Below are positions 45,558 to 53,608 of a DNA stretch of 64,000 nucleotides, one piece after another. The notes below the pieces were generated by a model. The model was not told the origin of the DNA. It saw only the letters and a list, made by a program, of their open reading frames with translations, and did not search any database. How positions within the stretch are numbered: the stretch's first letter is position 1; every line of letters begins with the position of its first letter. The position numbers and the translations under genes are program-made. Source of the DNA: a bacterium (GTDB lineage Bacteria > Patescibacteriota > Minisyncoccia > Phycocordibacterales > JAGLPS01); NCBI GenBank assembly GCA_030690305.1, contig JAUYHB010000006.1:5668-69667 (forward strand), written 5' to 3'.

Positions 45558-47642
45558 TTAAATGTCGAGGTTGGCTTTATGGGCGTTGGATTGGATAAAT
45601 GATTTTCGGGAAGCCACATCGTCGCCCATGAGAATTTCAAATATTTTATCCGCCTCGCGGGCATCGTCAATTGTCACCTGTTTTAAAATGCGTCTTTTGG
45701 GATCCATAGTCGTTTCCCACAATTCTTCGGCGTTCATTTCTCCGAGACCTTTGTAGCGCTGAATATTTACTTTAGGAACTCTTTTTGCCTTCTCCTCTTC
45801 AACTTCCACAGTTTCGGGCTCGGCGCCTTCTTCCTGCACCTCTTCAACTTCTTCCGCTTCTTTGGCGTCTACACCAAGGTCTTTGAGAGACTTGAGTTTT
45901 TCATTATCGGAATATGCATAGCGGACTTCTTTGCCTTTGGAAATCTTGTACAACGGGGGCTGGGCAATATAAATAAATCCGCCGTCAAGAAGACCTCGCA
46001 GAAAACGATAAAACATAGTAAGAAGAAGCGTTCTGATATGCGCACCGTCAACATCGGCATCTGTTGCGATAATGACTTTGTGGTAACGAAGATTGGTAAT
46101 ATCAAAACTGTCACCGATTGACGCTCCGAGAGCAACGACGAGATTTTTGATTTGTTCGGATGCAAGCGCTTTGTCCAAACGGGCACGTTCAATATTTAAA
46201 ATTTTTCCACGAAGCGGCAAAATTGCCTGAATACGGCGGTCACGTCCGCTTTTCGCCGTTCCTCCGGCGGAATCCCCCTCGACAATAAACAGTTCGGATT
46301 CTTCCGCGGACTTGCTTTGGCAGTCGGCAAGTTTCCCTGGAAGCATCATTCCCTCAAGCGCTCCCTTGCGCAAAACGCTGTCCTTGGCCGCTTTTGCGGC
46401 TTTTCGCGCCTTAAGAGCAAGAAGCACTTTGTTTATGATTGAACGTGCTTCGTCCGGATGTTCTTCCAAAAAAGCGGTAAATCCTTCAGAAAAAACGCTT
46501 TCAACCATTCCGCGCGCTTCAAGACTCCCCAACTTTGCTTTTGTCTGTCCTTCGAACTGGATTTCACGCAGTTTAACCGCCACAACCGCGGTAAGGCCTT
46601 CCAAGACGTCTTCTCCTGTCAGGCTTTCTTCTTTTTCTTTAATCAGATTATTGTTGCGGGCGTAGTTGTTTATGGTGCGGGTAAGAGCGGTTTTAAAACC
46701 GGTAACGTGCATACCGCCTTCCGAGTTATAAATGTTGTTTGCGAACGGTAATACACGGGAAGAAATATCATCCACATACTGAAGAGCGATTTCAACACTT
46801 TCGTATTCATTCGTATGTTTTTCGGTATAAAAAATATTTTTGTGAATCGGTTTGAAAAATTTGTTGTAAAAACTTACAAGCGACACAAGGCCGCCTTCAA
46901 AACAGAAGGTGTACGAAGGGGCTTCAAGATGAATGTCTTCAAGGAAAAATATTTCAGAATCGTCAATTTCTTTTTCCCCACGGGCATCAATAACAACAAT
47001 ACGCAGACCACGCACAAGATACGCCTGCTGACGCATATGGTCCATAACTTTATTCAAATCAAAAGAAATTTCTTTGAAAATTTCTTCATCGGGTTCAAAG
47101 GTGACGATAGTTCCCGTCATTTTTGATGAACCGATTTTTTTGACCGCGTGCTTTTTCTTTCCTTTAGCATATTCCTGAACATATTGCCCTCCGTCACGAT
47201 GCACCGAAACTTTCATGTGTATAGACAAGGCGTTGACTACCGAACCCCCGACACCGTGAAGACCTCCGGAAACTTTGTATCCTTCCCCGCCGAATTTTCC
47301 TCCGGCGTGCAACGTGGTCATTATTGTTTCAAGCGCGGAGACTTTCGTTTGTTTGTGAACGTCAACCGGAATCCCGCGGCCATTATCCGCTACGCGTACG
47401 CGATTCCCGGACAATAACGCCACTTCAATACGATTGGAAAAACCGCCCATCGCTTCATCCCGCGAGTTATCAAAAATTTCCCAAATAAGGTGGTGAAGCC
47501 CCTCGGAACTTGTGGTCCCGATATACATTCCCGGACGTCTTCTTACAGGCTCAAGACCCTCCAGAACGGTAATATCCTGGGCGCTGTAACTTCCCTTTTT
47601 GGAAGCTGGTTTTTCCTTTTTTTCCTCCTCTTTTTTCGGCAT
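45558..47642 (-). CDS. gyrB: DNA gyrase subunit B
   Basis: RRRPGMYIG, GGLHGVG, EGDSAGG, PLRGKILN, DADVDG, QRYKGLGEMN. Confidence 0.95.
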   Translation of the reverse strand: MPKKEEEKKEKPASKKGSYSAQDITVLEGLEPVRRRPGMYIGTTSSEGLHHLIWEIFDNSRDEAMGGFSNRIEVALLSGNRVRVADNGRGIPVDVHKQTKVSALETIMTTLHAGGKFGGEGYKVSGGLHGVGGSVVNALSIHMKVSVHRDGGQYVQEYAKGKKKHAVKKIGSSKMTGTIVTFEPDEEIFKEISFDLNKVMDHMRQQAYLVRGLRIVVIDARGEKEIDDSEIFFLEDIHLEAPSYTFCFEGGLVSLVSFYNKFFKPIHKNIFYTEKHTNEYESVEIALQYVDDISSRVLPFANNIYNSEGGMHVTGFKTALTRTINNYARNNNLIKEKEESLTGEDVLEGLTAVVAVKLREIQFEGQTKAKLGSLEARGMVESVFSEGFTAFLEEHPDEARSIINKVLLALKARKAAKAAKDSVLRKGALEGMMLPGKLADCQSKSAEESELFIVEGDSAGGTAKSGRDRRIQAILPLRGKILNIERARLDKALASEQIKNLVVALGASIGDSFDITNLRYHKVIIATDADVDGAHIRTLLLTMFYRFLRGLLDGGFIYIAQPPLYKISKGKEVRYAYSDNEKLKSLKDLGVDAKEAEEVEEVQEEGAEPETVEVEEEKAKRVPKVNIQRYKGLGEMNAEELWETTMDPKRRILKQVTIDDAREADKIFEILMGDDVASRKSFIQSNAHKANLDI

Positions 47643-47846
47643 AAAGAAAAATACTTTGTTGCTGTCTCTCGCTCGGAAAAGGGAGAAAATGCTCTCCCTT
47701 TTCACTCGCTCGTTGAGCAGTAAAAACAAAAAAACGAACTGATTTCGTACCCTCTATTATACCAAAAAACGGCCTCAAAATAAAGCTGTTTTGGACATTT
47801 GAACATGTTTTTCCCCTCCCTCGGGAAAAACGATAAAAACTGAAAA

Positions 47847-48371
47847 TTACCCTAAGAATATGGCTAATTTACGCCATTTTTTTAGAAAGTCTGGCAAAGT
47901 CATCTTTTGAAATGAGGAACCTCCGTCTTTTGTGTCAGGGTCATGAAAAATAATATGGGTAGGGCTTGCTGTTTCCCCCTCAAAACCCACAGCTAAAATG
48001 GCATGGAAAGAATCATTCGGCTTGGTAACTGACAGAAGAACCGGACGGTTTTCAGCAAGTTTTTTTATTATTTTACTAAGCCCAACTGTTTCCAGTCTCT
48101 CTTTAAACAAATCACTCGCGGAACGGAACTCCTCTTTGTATGAGGGAACTCCATGATTGTGGGCGAGAAAAACAAGTGAGTCGTGAGACCACCCATGTGG
48201 AGTATAACCACTTATGGAAACTCCTTCTTCAATAAGAGAATCAATTGAAGGAATATCCGAGGATAGAAAATCCAGACCCATCTTCAGACATGTAACGGCA
48301 CAGGCCTTTGAACGCCATGACTCATCGGTCACATTGTCGTACTGAGAATAAAAAGGTGCATCAAGAGTCAT
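47847..48371 (-). CDS. Peptidase C39-like (papain-fold) protein
   Basis: PFYSQ..W..ACAVTCLKM (Gln and Cys), GW.H, FHAILAVG (His), FHDP (Asp). Confidence 0.8.
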   Translation of the reverse strand: MTLDAPFYSQYDNVTDESWRSKACAVTCLKMGLDFLSSDIPSIDSLIEEGVSISGYTPHGWSHDSLVFLAHNHGVPSYKEEFRSASDLFKERLETVGLSKIIKKLAENRPVLLSVTKPNDSFHAILAVGFEGETASPTHIIFHDPDTKDGGSSFQKMTLPDFLKKWRKLAIFLG

Positions 48372-48375
48372 CGTA

Positions 48376-50739
48376 TTATCTTACTTTCCAATTTTTTTCT
48401 TTTTCCAGAGCATCGGACACGCGTTTCATAACGACATTAATTTCTTCGTCGGAAAGAGTCTTTTCAAAGGATTGGAATACGAGGCGAAAGGCATATGAAG
48501 TTTGTTTGCCACCTTCGGCATTTGTTTTTTCGAACACGTCAAACAGCCTGCTTTGGACAAGAAGGTCTCCCGCCTCTTTTGCAATAACGGAAAGAACAGT
48601 GTACGAGGTAATGCCGGATGGAACAAAAAGCGAAATGTCGCGAAGCATGAATGGATATGCAGAAATTTTCTCTACTTGTTTGGGGTGCTCATTGATACTT
48701 TCTTTTTCATAGGCTTTCGGTTCGGGAAGGGAGTCTATGATGTCGCCAAGGTCGATTTCATAACAAGTTTCGGAAACGGGAGGCAACTGCACGCCAAGAT
48801 GTTTCCCAAGATTTTCAACTGTCTCTGCCAGTTCCTCTATTTCCTTTTTCTCTTTTGATTTTTGTCCTTTTAACGCAAGAGTGAAAGAAAGTATTTCTCC
48901 TTTCATGGAAAAAACCGTCCCGATTTCAAAAATTTTAACCGCATCCAATCCAAGTAGGTCCGCATTTCGAAGATTTTCTTCAAGCGCTTTTTTGACCCCT
49001 CCTTGCAAATTTGGTCTCAAAAAATTTTTGTCCTCGGCAAGCGGATTGGCAATTTCAATGTCTCCGTGAGAAATAAGTGAATATGTGTACGTTTCGGAAA
49101 AGCCTTTCTCTATAAGGAAATGCCGAATGACACTCGTGTAATAAAAACGTTTGTGCACGGGCGGTTTGGAGGCCTTAGGAGGCATCACTGAGGCAATTTT
49201 GGAATATCCATAGACCCGTCCGATTTCCTCAGCAAGGTCTTCCTTGATACGGACATCAAGGCGTGTAAAAGGCACAGTAACAACAAAGCGTTCTTCCTCG
49301 GAGGGTATGTGGCGGCGGTAGCCGGCAATGTGCTTAAATCTGTCGCTTTCTTTTATTTTTTCAATCACAACCTTTCCCGCTTTCTGCGTAGCGTGGGCGA
49401 CTTCTCCGTCGCCAATATATACTCCACAATGGTCAACTCCTTCAGGGACCTTTGTCCCTTTTAAAAATTCTTTTGTTTCGTAGTGAACGCCATGCTCTCC
49501 AACTCCGGTATTTGCGTAAATAACATCCCCCGGTTTGGTTTCTTTCTCGGAAACCGGAGAACCCCACACATATTGGTCAACGGAAATACGTGGAATGCCT
49601 ACACCGGCGCTAACGTAAAGATATGCAACAAAAGAGGAACAATCAAAGGCCTGTCCACCTTCCCTGCCAACACTTGCTCCGCGTTTGTATGGGGTACCGA
49701 TATACTTTTTCGCGTCTTCAACTATTTTTTTTCTCGGAGAAACTATTTCATAAGAAAAACCCGCGCGGGTTAAGATATTTTCGATGTCTTTTTTCTGAAG
49801 TGCAATGCCCAGTATTTGTTCAATTTCATTTTTTGAAATTCCCACTTTGTATTGAACCTCATGATTCGGATATATATCAACAACGCCCTCCACGCTTGTT
49901 TTGTCTCCATGGGCTATGTCGAGAATGAGGGTGACAACCGATTGCATCGCTTCCATAGCGAGAGTGGCGGAAATTTCGTTTTCAAAACGAAGTGACGCAT
50001 CGGTACGCAGGTTGAGATCTTTGGAAAATTTTCTTACAAGAATCGGGTCGAAATTTGCGGCTTCAAGAACAATATTTTTTGTCTGAGAAGAAATTTCTGC
50101 TGCCCTGCCGCCCTTAATGCCCGCTATGCCGAGAATTGCACCTGAGTTTCCGTCCCGTATCAACGGAGTGCCCTGGGGAAGGTCGTATGTTTTTTCATCA
50201 AGTGCTTCCATCTTCTCTCCTTTCTTGGAGATATCAAGACTGATAGAAATTTTATCCGCCTTCTTTTCGAATTTGTCGGCATCAAAAGCATGAAGGGGCT
50301 GACCCAAAGAAAACATAACGTAGTTTGTTGCGTCAACAATATTATTGATTGAACGCTGGCCGATTGCTTCAAGACGCTTTTTAAGCCACTCGGGGCTTTG
50401 ACCCACTTTTATATCCCTGACCAAAGCTCCGACATATCGTCTGCAAAACGGATGCGCGAGAGAAATGGAAAGAGTTTTCGAGATGGGATATTTTTCAGTT
50501 TTTTCTTCTTTTTTAAGTGGAAGGTTCAGAAGCAGCGCCGCCTCCCGCGCAATTCCGCGATGTGAAAGACAGTCGTGATTCCTGTTTGGCAGAACGGCAA
50601 GATCAAAAATCACATCCTCCCCTTTCTCCTCAACCGATTCAACTTCAAAAGCCGACATTTCAATCGCTTCCGTGAACACGTCGGGCTTGGGAAGACTCCC
50701 CAAAATATAATCTGCAAGCCAGTGGTAACTTATTTTCAT
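48376..50739 (-). CDS. pheT: Phenylalanyl-tRNA synthetase beta subunit with inserted NlpC/P60 domain
   Basis: PNRNHDCLSHRGIARE, B3/4 NNIVDATNYVM..GQPLHAFD, TDASLRFE, RLDV..KEDLAEEIGRVYGY, FDX-ACB RDIS..FDVF..TLSDEEI; NlpC/P60 at about aa 334-480. Confidence 0.93.
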   Translation of the reverse strand: MKISYHWLADYILGSLPKPDVFTEAIEMSAFEVESVEEKGEDVIFDLAVLPNRNHDCLSHRGIAREAALLLNLPLKKEEKTEKYPISKTLSISLAHPFCRRYVGALVRDIKVGQSPEWLKKRLEAIGQRSINNIVDATNYVMFSLGQPLHAFDADKFEKKADKISISLDISKKGEKMEALDEKTYDLPQGTPLIRDGNSGAILGIAGIKGGRAAEISSQTKNIVLEAANFDPILVRKFSKDLNLRTDASLRFENEISATLAMEAMQSVVTLILDIAHGDKTSVEGVVDIYPNHEVQYKVGISKNEIEQILGIALQKKDIENILTRAGFSYEIVSPRKKIVEDAKKYIGTPYKRGASVGREGGQAFDCSSFVAYLYVSAGVGIPRISVDQYVWGSPVSEKETKPGDVIYANTGVGEHGVHYETKEFLKGTKVPEGVDHCGVYIGDGEVAHATQKAGKVVIEKIKESDRFKHIAGYRRHIPSEEERFVVTVPFTRLDVRIKEDLAEEIGRVYGYSKIASVMPPKASKPPVHKRFYYTSVIRHFLIEKGFSETYTYSLISHGDIEIANPLAEDKNFLRPNLQGGVKKALEENLRNADLLGLDAVKIFEIGTVFSMKGEILSFTLALKGQKSKEKKEIEELAETVENLGKHLGVQLPPVSETCYEIDLGDIIDSLPEPKAYEKESINEHPKQVEKISAYPFMLRDISLFVPSGITSYTVLSVIAKEAGDLLVQSRLFDVFEKTNAEGGKQTSYAFRLVFQSFEKTLSDEEINVVMKRVSDALEKEKNWKVR

Positions 50740-50741
50740 AA

Positions 50742-51437
50742 TTAAAACTGATTGATAAGGCGCATGTCTCCGTTATACAAAAGCCGCACATCGGGAATAC
50801 CGTATTTAAGCATTGCAAGACGGTCAAGCCCGCCCCCAAATGCAAAACCACTCCATTGCCCGGGGTGAATACCCGCCGCTTGAAGTGCGTGTGGGTGAAC
50901 CATGCCCGCGCCCATGACTTCAAGCCATTTACCTTGAAACTCAATATCTATTTCAACTCCCGGTTCAACAAACGGAAAATAACTCGGACGGAAACGGATT
51001 ATTATATCTTTTGAAAGAATTTTTCTGAAATACGCTTCAAGAATTGCCTTGAGATGTGCAAGAGAAACGTTCCGGTCTATCATCAGGCCCTCAAGTTGGT
51101 AAAACTGCGATTCGTGGGTCGCATCCGTTGCCTCGTGACGGAAAACCTTTCCTGGTGAAATAATCCGCAACGGCGGCGTATGCGTTTCCATGTAGCGAAT
51201 CTGCACCGGAGAAGTGTGCGTGCGGAGCAATTTTCTGTCTTCAAGCGGCTTAAGCCAGAACGTGTCCCACATGTCACGGGAAGGATGGTGGGCGGGAATG
51301 TTAAGTGCGTCAAAGTTGTAACGCTCGGTTTCTATCTCCGGACCGGTCGCTACGGCAAAACCAAGCTCGTTGAAAATCGCATTGGATTCTTCAATAAGAA
51401 TGCTGATAGGATGCAGATGTCCTTTGCCCGGTTCCAT
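50742..51437 (-). CDS. pheS: Phenylalanyl-tRNA synthetase alpha subunit, catalytic core only
   Basis: GHLHP, NFDALN, LRTHTSPVQIR, FRPSYFPFVEP, GFAFGGGLDR; start placed at the ATG 7 nt after TATAAT. Confidence 0.95.
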   Translation of the reverse strand: MEPGKGHLHPISILIEESNAIFNELGFAVATGPEIETERYNFDALNIPAHHPSRDMWDTFWLKPLEDRKLLRTHTSPVQIRYMETHTPPLRIISPGKVFRHEATDATHESQFYQLEGLMIDRNVSLAHLKAILEAYFRKILSKDIIIRFRPSYFPFVEPGVEIDIEFQGKWLEVMGAGMVHPHALQAAGIHPGQWSGFAFGGGLDRLAMLKYGIPDVRLLYNGDMRLINQF

Positions 51438-51469
51438 ACCCGCCATTATATAGAAAAGAAGGCTTTATT

Positions 51470-51681: not shown

Positions 51682-52923
51682 ATGAATGACGCACAGACGG
51701 TGGTAATTTATATGCTTCTTTTTGTTTCCCTCTATTTTGAGGTTTTTTTGCTTGTAACGTATCTCGAAAAAAGAATTCAGATTAAATACGAGACGTCGCG
51801 TAAAAACACTTTTTTCCCTTCGGTTTCAATCATTGTTCCCTGTTTTAACGAGGAACACACCGTGGTAAAAACCATTCAATCACTTCTGCGTCTCGATTAT
51901 CCGGAAGAAAAAATTGAAATTATTGTCGTGAATGACGGAAGCCGCGATAAAACAGCGCAAATACTGAAGGAAAATTTTTCAACCGAAAAAAGAATCACCG
52001 TGCTCCATAAAGAAAATGGAGGAAAGTACACCGCCCTAAATTACGGCCTAACACATTCACACGGAGAATTTGTCGGTTGTCTGGATGCGGATTCTTTTGT
52101 TGAGCCGAGCACCCTTTCCAATATCATCTCGTATTTTGAAGATAAGACGATAATGTCGGTAGTTCCATCAATCATCGTTCACAGCCCGTCGACCGTCATC
52201 CAGTCGTTTCAGCAAGTCGAGTACCAATGGGGTATATTTTTGCGTAAAGTTCTTTCATATCTTGGAGCGTTATATGTTACTCCGGGTCCATTTTCTATTT
52301 TTCGCAGAGAAATATTCAATGTAATAGGAACATATACGGAAGGACACAAAACGGAAGACCTTGAGTTTGCTCTTCGTCTGCAAAAAAATCATTACAGAAT
52401 CGCAAATGCTCATAGTGCGTATGTTCATACTGTGGCTCCGAAAACGCTCAAGACCCTGTATGCCCAACGTCTCCGATGGACGTATGGATTTCTTAAAAAC
52501 GCTTTTGATTATCGGGAACTGTTCTTCAAGAAAGAATACGGTCACTTAGGGCTCTTTGTTCTTCCAATGGCAGCGGGAACTATTTTTACAACTCTGTATA
52601 CGGTAGGAAACGTCATTTTTGAAATGCTTATGAAGGGCGTTGAAAAGTGGGTTGAAATCGCCACGGTAGGAGTGGATATCTCCTGGAAAGGCTTTCATTT
52701 TGATTGGTTTTTTCTCAATACCGACGGGATTTTATTCCTCAGTACGATATTGTCGGTCATAACCGTATTGCTTATCCTTATTGGGAAAAAGCTTGCTGTT
52801 GGAAAGATGACTTTCTCAAGAGACCTTGTTTACTTTTTTCTCCTCTTCCCTTTTATTACACCTTTATGGCTTGGAACAGCGATTTACCGCGTCGCCTTTT
52901 CAAAAAAGGTAAGTTGGAGATAG
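51682..52923 (+). CDS. Family 2 glycosyltransferase (processive, PgaC/cellulose-synthase-like)
   Basis: SIIVPCFNEE, NDGSRD, LDADS, TED, QRLRW, C-terminal TM helices. Confidence 0.92.
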   Translation: MNDAQTVVIYMLLFVSLYFEVFLLVTYLEKRIQIKYETSRKNTFFPSVSIIVPCFNEEHTVVKTIQSLLRLDYPEEKIEIIVVNDGSRDKTAQILKENFSTEKRITVLHKENGGKYTALNYGLTHSHGEFVGCLDADSFVEPSTLSNIISYFEDKTIMSVVPSIIVHSPSTVIQSFQQVEYQWGIFLRKVLSYLGALYVTPGPFSIFRREIFNVIGTYTEGHKTEDLEFALRLQKNHYRIANAHSAYVHTVAPKTLKTLYAQRLRWTYGFLKNAFDYRELFFKKEYGHLGLFVLPMAAGTIFTTLYTVGNVIFEMLMKGVEKWVEIATVGVDISWKGFHFDWFFLNTDGILFLSTILSVITVLLILIGKKLAVGKMTFSRDLVYFFLLFPFITPLWLGTAIYRVAFSKKVSWR

Positions 52924-52927
52924 AATC

Positions 52928-53608
52928 ATGCGAGAAGGGATTGAAATAAAAAAATATTTCTTTGTGTTGCTTATAACCACGGCAATTTTTTTTACTGCTT
53001 TTTATATTTCAAACTACCTCAATGACAAGAAACTGACCGAACTGAAAACCATTGAAAACAGAATCGCCATAGATATTCTCTCCTCCGAAACTCAGTATTC
53101 ACTCCTTGCCGAGTCGTCATGTCAAAATATAGGAGCGTCTGTTCTTTCCGAGGAGCTTGGTCCTCTCGGGGAAAAACTGGCCTTCGCGGAAGAAAGCCGC
53201 GGGACAGATAATCCGGAAGTGATCGCTCTCAAAAAATCCTACTCTCTTCTTCTGATCAAAGACTACTTGCTCATGAACAAAATCAGCGAAAAATGTAAAC
53301 TTGACCCTGTTTTTATTCTTTATTTCTATTCAAACGAAGGCGATTGTCCGGACTGTGTACGGGAAGGATACGTGCTTACCCGTTTGCGGGAAAAATATCC
53401 GACCCTTCGTATTTACGCGTTTGACTACAATCTCCCTCTTTCAGCGGTAAAAACACTTGTTTCGATCAAACGTATTGGCAAGGACTTGCCTGCCCTTGTT
53501 ATCAACGATAAGGCCTATTATGGGCTCAGGAGTGTTGAAGAAATTGAAGCCATCATACCGGAAATCAAGGCGCTGGCGGAAACCGCCTCATCGACTCCGG
53601 GAAGATAG
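52928..53608 (+). CDS. Membrane-anchored protein with thioredoxin-like CxxC domain
   Basis: N-terminal TM, ILYFYS..CPDC..EGYVL, PALVIN. Confidence 0.65.
   Translation: MREGIEIKKYFFVLLITTAIFFTAFYISNYLNDKKLTELKTIENRIAIDILSSETQYSLLAESSCQNIGASVLSEELGPLGEKLAFAEESRGTDNPEVIALKKSYSLLLIKDYLLMNKISEKCKLDPVFILYFYSNEGDCPDCVREGYVLTRLREKYPTLRIYAFDYNLPLSAVKTLVSIKRIGKDLPALVINDKAYYGLRSVEEIEAIIPEIKALAETASSTPGR

Follow-up and report, generated by a model that had tools for sequence, protein, structure and literature searches.

The C40 (NlpC/P60) family includes the peptidoglycan DL-endopeptidases Acd24020 of C. difficile (7cfl), P60 of T. thermophilus (4xcm), CwlO and LytE of B. subtilis and MepS of E. coli. 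We describe a domain that shares their fold and catalytic triad, and likewise their Tyr, Asp-Cys-Ser and Pro-Arg motifs, but is nested in the B5 domain of a cytoplasmic enzyme, the beta subunit (PheT) of phenylalanyl-tRNA synthetase (PheRS), without an export signal or a wall-binding domain, with an extra loop of ~22 aa before the catalytic His, and without the conserved Trp228. It is encoded in a 64,000-nucleotide stretch of patescibacterial DNA (contig JAUYHB010000006.1, positions 5,668 to 69,667), called the window below.

YkfC-type enzymes (YkfC, DPP VI, AvPCP; 3h41, 2hbw, 3pvq; and chlamydial YkfC) join NlpC/P60 to an N-terminal accessory domain, as the window protein appears to do, and cytosolic members exist according to the available parts of two reports (PMC2954226; bioRxiv 2022.11.17.516864). 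The insert differs from them in having neither the SH3b domain, which carries Tyr118, nor Asp256; its accessory domain would be the split B5, with a conserved Tyr, Gly and Arg. The module may work like YkfC without being a member of that group.

The host protein has the B1, B3/4, B5, CLM and FDX-ACB domains of bacterial PheRS beta (1pys_B, 3pco_B, 7k98), from which it departs in giving no match to the B2 OB-fold and in having its B5 hairpin occupied by a catalytic domain of 150 aa. Second catalytic domains on synthetases are known from mycobacterial LysX and fungal ErdS, which are fused to transfer domains of other folds that use charged tRNA; the domain described here differs in having a papain-like fold, in lying inside its host and in persisting apart from the synthetase. 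The protein of a neighbouring gene shares its fold and its Gln/Cys/His/Asp residues with Peptidase_C39_2 (3erv; endolysin catalytic domains) and, unlike the endolysins, is stand-alone, lacks a wall-binding domain and is tied to the pheT::NlpC locus.

The nested domain and its host

The pheT open reading frame (ORF; 48376-50739, minus strand) spans 787 aa with zero internal stops. Pfam places B3_4 at residues 99-276, NLPC_P60 at 348-475 (57 bits against a cut-off of 23, E 1.8e-15), CLM at 517-650, FDX-ACB at 693-787 and B5 in two stretches. Relative to insert-less alleles the insert adds ~150 aa (residues 333-483, window ~49290-49743), and it takes the place of a short turn linking two B5 strands; most of 56 insert-less alleles have 4 residues there. 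An AlphaFold model of PheT (mean pLDDT 94.4, pTM 0.76) superposes at residues 334-478 on the catalytic domain of Acd24020 with Z 20.0 and rmsd 1.4 Å over 120 residues, and the insert superposes on peptidoglycan DL-endopeptidases with Z 17-20 and rmsd 1.4-2.0 Å; PheT outside the insert matches PheT structures at Z 40-46. Neither an SH3 domain (by Pfam) nor a cell-wall-binding domain was matched in PheT or the related module proteins, the flanking domain of the insert being B5.

The features of the locus are as follows.

50742..51446, minus strand: pheS, PheRS alpha subunit of 234 aa, catalytic core only (tRNA-synt_2d, E 1e-90)
48376..50739, minus strand: pheT, PheRS beta subunit of 787 aa, with B1, B3/4, B5 split by NlpC/P60, CLM and FDX-ACB
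49912..50445, minus strand: B3/4 editing domain, aa 99-276
49741..49863, minus strand: N-terminal half of B5, aa 293-333, with the insert-linked Y297 (49849-51) and G300 (49840-42)
49291..49740, minus strand: NlpC/P60 (C40) insert, aa 334-483, with Y351, D366-C367-S368, R384, S386, D388, H437 and H449 (catalytic codons: C367 49639-41, H437 49429-31, H449 49393-95)
49204..49290, minus strand: C-terminal half of B5, aa 484-512, with the insert-linked R484 and with R493, D495, D501, E504 and E505 intact
48379..48663, minus strand: FDX-ACB anticodon-binding domain, aa 693-787
47847..48371, minus strand: C39-like cysteine peptidase (Peptidase_C39_2), 174 aa, with Q10, C24, H123 and D144
45558..47729, minus strand: gyrB-like ORF, a conserved downstream locus marker outside the module

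A preliminary description of the window, made from its letters alone, had reported an intact NlpC/P60 domain inside B5 in a continuous frame, and both observations are confirmed by the Pfam match, the superposition, the flanking PheT domains and the stop-free ORF; C367, H437 and H449 lie exactly where it had put them. It overlooked the C39-like partner gene and the B5 surface that co-evolved with the insert. Because independent homologues share the architecture, the fusion is real. A search with PheT residues 290-520 gave 257 proteins, and since this ranking depends on the searched region itself, genome sampling was added. NLPC_P60, B3_4, B5 and FDX-ACB occur together in all 120 of the 257 matches that were listed. 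Both junctions are covered by contigs from two groundwater runs that agree fully with the window, as the early account would predict, although either run may be the source of the DNA and the check is therefore non-independent. An assembly or gene-calling artefact was rejected as vanishingly improbable on these contigs, on the 257 homologues and on the genome sampling, with 73 of 301 genomes carrying the fusion and one insertion site across three taxonomic levels. We found no account of a pheT::NlpC/P60 fusion in the literature searched, which did not cover subscription journals or supplements, in keeping with the preliminary description, which knew of no such synthetase fusion; on B5 the same literature held nothing useful. 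The parts belong to known families; what appears undescribed there is their arrangement and the second use to which B5 has apparently been put.

Named homologues belong to Patescibacteria (Paceibacterota, Taylorbacteria, Yonathbacteria, Parcubacteria), and every named match to the fusion is from Patescibacteria or unclassified bacteria, no search having been aimed outside the phylum. Annotation pipelines do recognise the domain, as is seen from database entries that bear names such as 'C40 family peptidase' or 'PheRS beta subunit-related protein'. Sampling 301 genomes of the order, we found the fusion in 73 and a free B5::NlpC gene in 6 among the matches listed, 91 further unlisted matches all being weaker than E 6.5e-7; this defines 79 carriers and 222 non-carriers. 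In a sample of 301 genomes from the class, a search with a bare relative matched 46, and the 30 loci examined comprised 12 fusions and 18 bare genes. A phylum sample, again of 301, added ten matches outside the class: eight fusions (922-965 aa), one bare gene and one free B5-like protein. The insert occupies one identical site in all 77 aligned fused alleles, and the same site in the other classes.

The Cys-His-His triad, whose conservation in homologous inserts the early account had expected, is kept whole in 72 of the 77 fusions sampled from genomes and in 26 of 26 stand-alone copies; among the best 120 homologues C367 and H437 are present in every one and H449 in 118. The S1 pocket was compared using the YkfC residues as defined in the available part of PMC2954226. 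Its equivalents in the window protein are Y351, D366, S368, R384 and S386 (Tyr226, Asp237, Ser239, Arg255 and the small residue 257), and among the 77 fusions Tyr226 is kept in 74, Asp237 in 68, Ser239 in 76 and Arg255 in 71; at position 257 a small residue is found in all but one of the best 120 homologues (119). By its residues, then, the insert is a predicted C40 hydrolase with a gamma-D-Glu-type pocket, and not a YkfC.

The three PheT positions outside the insert that differ most between the two allele types all lie in B5: G300 is found in 68 of 77 insert alleles versus 5 of 56 insert-less ones, R484 in 65 versus 4 and Y297 in 58 versus 3. The B3/4 residues N139, P148, H150 and D153 are invariant in all 77 and 56, and like the B5 acidic residues they show no difference between allele types; we presume an editing role for the former and magnesium binding for the latter. 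Insert alleles keep R493 and D495 in 77 of 77, D501 in 75, E504 in 76 and E505 in 75. A converse pattern is seen in 20 free B5::NlpC proteins (some of them kin, and some database entries perhaps fragments), which have Y297 in 20, G300 in 19, R484 in 19 and D388 in 20, and D501 and E504 in only 2 each. These comparisons of aligned residues show B5 to have two separable surfaces, one linked to the insert and one specific to PheRS.

The gene run on the minus strand is pheS-pheT-c39-gyrB with pheS as its first gene; 2 nt separate the pheS stop from the pheT start, and the C39-like gene starts 4 nt downstream of the pheT stop. The last ORF we take to be gyrB-like from its sequence motifs. Promoter and terminator scans gave results at chance level. 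The source genome is 791 kb long and 100% complete by markers, and pheT, the NLPC_P60 match and the C39_2 match are each single copy in it, all in the window locus. The window's pheS and pheT are the only ones in the genome, so that aminoacylation by this PheRS as an (alpha-beta)2 complex is expected.

Two observations at the edges of the locus stand apart from the module. Upstream of pheS (51682-53608, plus strand) lie a GT2 glycosyltransferase gene and one for a 226-aa protein without Pfam match, a pair kept at insert and insert-less loci alike. Downstream, GyrB frames of 1150 aa (L148, G177) and 970 aa (L159, G095) contrast with ~690 aa in relatives, and may contain inteins or other inserts.

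History of the insert and its C39-like neighbour

A FastTree phylogeny of PheT, with the insert columns removed, included 133 of 136 genomes, three fragments of <580 aa having been dropped. The insert state changes 22 times on this tree, compared with 43 times (minimum 33) when labels are shuffled. Insert-less alleles fall beside or inside insert alleles of the same family, with support of 0.99-1.0, in eight families (f6, f46, f34, f26, f18, f20, f51 and f36), and because of this nesting the tree suggests, as its simplest reading, an old gain followed by repeated loss; a single gain on the midpoint root needs 23 losses. Repeated regain by recombination is a possible alternative. Other explanations were tried and rejected. 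A recent lateral origin of the insert conflicts with its GC3 (0.40 against 0.41 for the rest of pheT), whole-gene transfer as the sole cause of the patchiness with the grouping of insert and insert-less alleles of one family at high FastTree support, and compensation for a broken editing domain with the sameness of the B3/4 residues in both allele types.

Insert and host diverge together (mean identity 44% for the insert and 42% for host PheT; Spearman 0.61 between distances). The insert is under purifying selection, with dN/dS of 0.08-0.29 in 7 of 11 pairs, dS being saturated in the other 4. It evolves faster than the host in 3 of the 11 pairs, two of which involve alleles without the third His, as expected of decay before loss. 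Decay among the 77 fusions takes the form of Cys to Ser in 2 and loss of the third His in 3. The two Cys to Ser inserts (L141, G023; L049, G087) are otherwise conserved, and G087 retains the C39-like gene.

Downstream of pheT, at a distance of at most 3.5 kb, a C39-like gene is present at 46 of 70 insert loci and at 1 of 50 loci without the insert; a further 16 loci did not extend far enough to be scored and were left out. Genome-wide, an orthologue (E <1e-45) was found in 52 of 301 genomes of the order, 48 of the 79 carriers and 4 of the 222 non-carriers; the profile was built from carrier neighbours, so that the informative count is the 4 of 222. Phylogenetically independent pairs on the PheT tree split ~8:0 (median p 0.008, range 0.001-0.07). 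Since ~300 codons of essential pheT separate the insert from the C39-like gene, one deletion cannot remove both. With 31 of 79 carriers lacking the orthologue, the dependence of the C39-like gene on the module is one-way. The two are fused in one protein in G106, P0209 and P0259, and a bare NlpC gene abuts a C39-like gene in G398.

The C39-like protein of the window matches Peptidase_C39_2 with 37 bits, and C24 and H123 are present in 41 of 42 sequences. Its structural neighbours in C39_2 are fused to PG_binding_1, Amidase_3/SH3_3 or phage lysozyme, and the accessible portion of PMC8223927 counts Peptidase_C39_2 among lysin catalytic domains. One locus (L124:3237-4286, minus strand; G248) has its C39-like gene within a 350-aa frame. 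We take the N-terminal half of that frame to resemble a PemK/MazF-type protein.

Modules outside PheT

Four f66 genomes (99-100% complete) have no PheT match besides B5::NlpC. At the pheST locus of all four, a monomeric PheRS of 382-396 aa, made up of the catalytic core and FDX-ACB, is followed directly by B5::NlpC and then by gyrB, with the C39-like gene between in one. The monomer scores 115-132 bits against the window PheS, where native PheS proteins score ~250-350 bits, so that it is a replacement. Bare NlpC genes stand directly before a monomeric PheRS gene at 7 of the 18 bare loci (f128), and the four f128 genomes checked have no PheT match. G177 has bare NlpC beside a monomeric PheRS plus an insert-less PheT; G106 has an insert-less PheT, with its B5::NlpC-C39 fusion elsewhere in the genome. 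The free module is far from pheS and pheT in G106 and G246. On the insert tree the free B5::NlpC genes occupy three separate positions among the fusions, which suggests that they arose by separate fissions.

A more distant family of free B5-like::NlpC proteins has 580 matches (~203 aa, 64% mean column identity, an invariant Tyr3). Its joined flanks match insert-less B5 across the junction (hhalign probability 63%, E 7e-5) and insert-type B5 more weakly (16%), while ten control windows gave 5% or less. Among 80 loci of this family none has a PheRS gene directly adjacent (one has pheS 2.5 kb away), and no neighbours are conserved, the commonest neighbour family occurring at 7 of 80. The family (L194-L273) is scattered over Patescibacteria and a few bins labelled otherwise, a distribution that suggests frequent transfer. 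Covalent coupling to PheRS is dispensable, because the module persists without PheT, far from pheS and pheT, or without a PheRS neighbour.

Several further observations concern PheRS itself. A monomeric PheRS of ~380 aa, with a mitochondrial-type layout, replaces the alpha-beta enzyme in several separate lineages of Patescibacteria (L032-L035, L045-L047, L072, L074-L079; G154, G068, G218, G269, G002, G017, G006 and f128), often at the old pheST-gyrB locus, and no paper on monomeric PheRS in Patescibacteria was found in the literature searched. A different C39-like ORF follows the monomeric PheRS at two f128 loci (L074:1-381, minus strand; L078:3070-3447, plus strand); the matches are weak (41-44 bits to the profile, no Pfam match on partial sequence). 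Shrunken PheT proteins of 411-436 aa occur in G039 (L024), G013, G138 and G246 (C2:200594-201697). Those of G039, G013 and G246 match B1 and B5 onward only, the B3/4 editing domain apparently being lost.

Possible function of the module

There is in our view about an even chance that the module is an autonomous cytoplasmic gamma-glutamyl peptide hydrolase acting on wall-derived peptides, in which B5 serves as an accessory domain, PheRS is the carrier and the C39-like enzyme takes part in the same process. On this hydrolase reading an NlpC/P60 domain would have been inserted into the hairpin of PheT B5 at an early stage of patescibacterial evolution. The B5 face bearing Y297, G300 and R484 would have been co-opted as an accessory domain with a role like that of SH3b in YkfC-type enzymes, while the opposite face continued to serve PheRS. 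The substrates of the enzyme would be peptides derived from peptidoglycan, whether the cell's own or scavenged, in which it would break the bond between gamma-D-Glu and the diamino acid or a comparable gamma-glutamyl amide. Cys367 would form the acyl-enzyme, assisted by His437 and His449, and the neighbouring C39-like peptidase would act in the same process. PheRS would provide constant expression and a folded carrier, and be unnecessary for the chemistry. In our reading B5 packs against the catalytic domain, whose S2 side it may cap. Superpositions on the SH3b-bearing 2hbw, 2evr, 6bim and 3h41 start (as rigid bodies) in the B5 strand 292-301, those on most single catalytic domains at 332-334, a weak hint at an SH3b-like placement of B5 in the model. 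In the source genome no family match was found for Glu/Asp racemase, Ala racemase, DAP epimerase or dipeptide epimerase (MR_MLE), which fits salvage of wall peptides. The preliminary description had proposed a moonlighting synthetase linked to peptidoglycan: a peptide substrate agrees with the retained S1 residues and the C39-like partner, but moonlighting by the synthetase itself is not supported.

A number of results weigh against a hydrolase of wall peptides. Trp228, typical of strict X-L-Ala-gamma-D-Glu binders, is not kept (R353 in the window; Tyr 32, Leu 24, Phe 16 and Asn 12 in the best 120 homologues), and among 8 fusions from other classes, whose substrates may differ, 7 have His or Tyr in place of Arg255. 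Asp256, which restricts YkfC to free peptides, is I385 in the window and a hydrophobic residue in 68 of 77 fusions (Met in 27, Ile in 25, Val in 12 and Leu in 4), with Thr in 3 more. Cytosolic YkfC requires a free L-Ala and so spares lipid II and UDP-MurNAc-tripeptide, as the available part of bioRxiv 2022.11.17.516864 has it; since the source genome encodes four Mur ligases, a C40 enzyme in its cytoplasm must be restrained in some other way, and the sparing of UDP-MurNAc-peptides and lipid II has no explanation unless the site is capped by B5. The superposition on RipB (3pbi) also reaches residue 297, which makes the hint above non-specific to SH3b. B5 is absent from the bare NlpC genes at 18 of 30 loci, hence dispensable in some lineages; the C39 orthologue is missing in 31 of 79 carriers; and the gene stays beside an unrelated monomeric PheRS in f66, f128 and G177. 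As for a D-Glu salvage link, carriage is not lower with a Glu/Asp racemase (9 of 43, p 0.46), and none of 9 genomes without Mur ligase matches is a carrier, which is not significant (p 0.12). PF01177 is matched in only 43 of the 301 genomes of the order sample.

Evidence for autonomy would serve equally for a cytoplasmic isopeptidase or amidase with a substrate other than peptidoglycan (gamma-glutamylated proteins or cofactors, or a protein partner). Such a substrate is favoured by the replacement of Trp228 and Asp256 (and of Arg255 in other classes), by the subfamily loop before the catalytic His and by the lack of a racemase association; yet the closest solved structures are peptidoglycan DL-endopeptidases and the C39 family occurs in cell-wall hydrolase architectures, and we regard this explanation as possible but unlikely. 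Export, as a weapon or attachment enzyme against a host cell wall, would suit the epibiotic lifestyle of the phylum, as given in the part of the source available, and a family that includes lysins and autolysins. The domain is, however, internal to an essential cytoplasmic enzyme and lacks a cell-wall-binding domain, and N-terminal hydropathy, a crude proxy, is <1.9 in 25 of 26 stand-alone copies as against 2.57 in a lipoprotein-like control, so we consider export very unlikely. A selfish, self-processing (intein-like) insert or a neutral passenger might be suspected from the fixed site in an essential gene, the patchiness within genera and the decay seen in certain lineages (2 of 77 with Ser for Cys, 3 of 77 without the third His). 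With no Hint or endonuclease Pfam match, junctions that are variable rather than conserved splice residues, co-divergence with PheT, purifying selection and persistence as a free gene, this was judged highly improbable; an intein or selfish insert was rejected on domains, junctions and co-divergence.

A link to tRNA, in which the C40 and C39-like enzymes would use or clean Phe-tRNA (an aminoacyl transferase acting via a Cys acyl-enzyme, or a deacylase of N-blocked or mischarged Phe-tRNA), gains from proximity to PheRS in three forms (fused; free B5::NlpC in 4 of 4 f66 genomes; bare NlpC at 7 of 18 loci in f128 and in G177), from the basic character of the bare copies (pI ~10 in most) and from the weak C39-like ORFs after monomeric PheRS. 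But the f66 loci and one f128 locus are at the ancestral pheST-gyrB position, where replacement in place explains the adjacency. Monomeric PheRS loci without an NlpC neighbour exist (G002, G006, G017), and PheRS is non-adjacent in G106, in G246, at 10 of 18 bare loci and at 80 of 80 free-family loci. With B3/4 residues the same in the presence and absence of the insert, and a pocket that keeps the gamma-D-Glu signature, we find a tRNA-linked role quite unlikely. Decidedly unlikely, to our minds, is a Phe-tRNA-dependent system of PheRS, C40 and C39-like enzymes that passes Phe or a blocking group via the Cys acyl-enzyme to a peptide or envelope acceptor; if true, it would explain why the gene stays beside an unrelated monomeric PheRS, and any tRNA-linked role would mean new chemistry for NlpC/P60 enzymes. 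An aminoacyl-tRNA-dependent transferase, the other suggestion of the preliminary description, is not supported as stated, as the B5::NlpC unit persists after loss of the remaining PheT.

In these ultra-small bacteria a structural domain of an essential synthetase, B5, has apparently taken a second job within a nested enzyme, and its two surfaces decay separately once either job is lost. B5::NlpC seems to have given rise repeatedly to separate proteins, the family of 580 matches among them. Together with the C39-like enzyme it would make up a phylum-wide module of two peptidases in host-dependent, peptidoglycan-building bacteria, in which the supply or recycling of wall peptides becomes testable through one small soluble protein, the free B5::NlpC of 200-230 aa.

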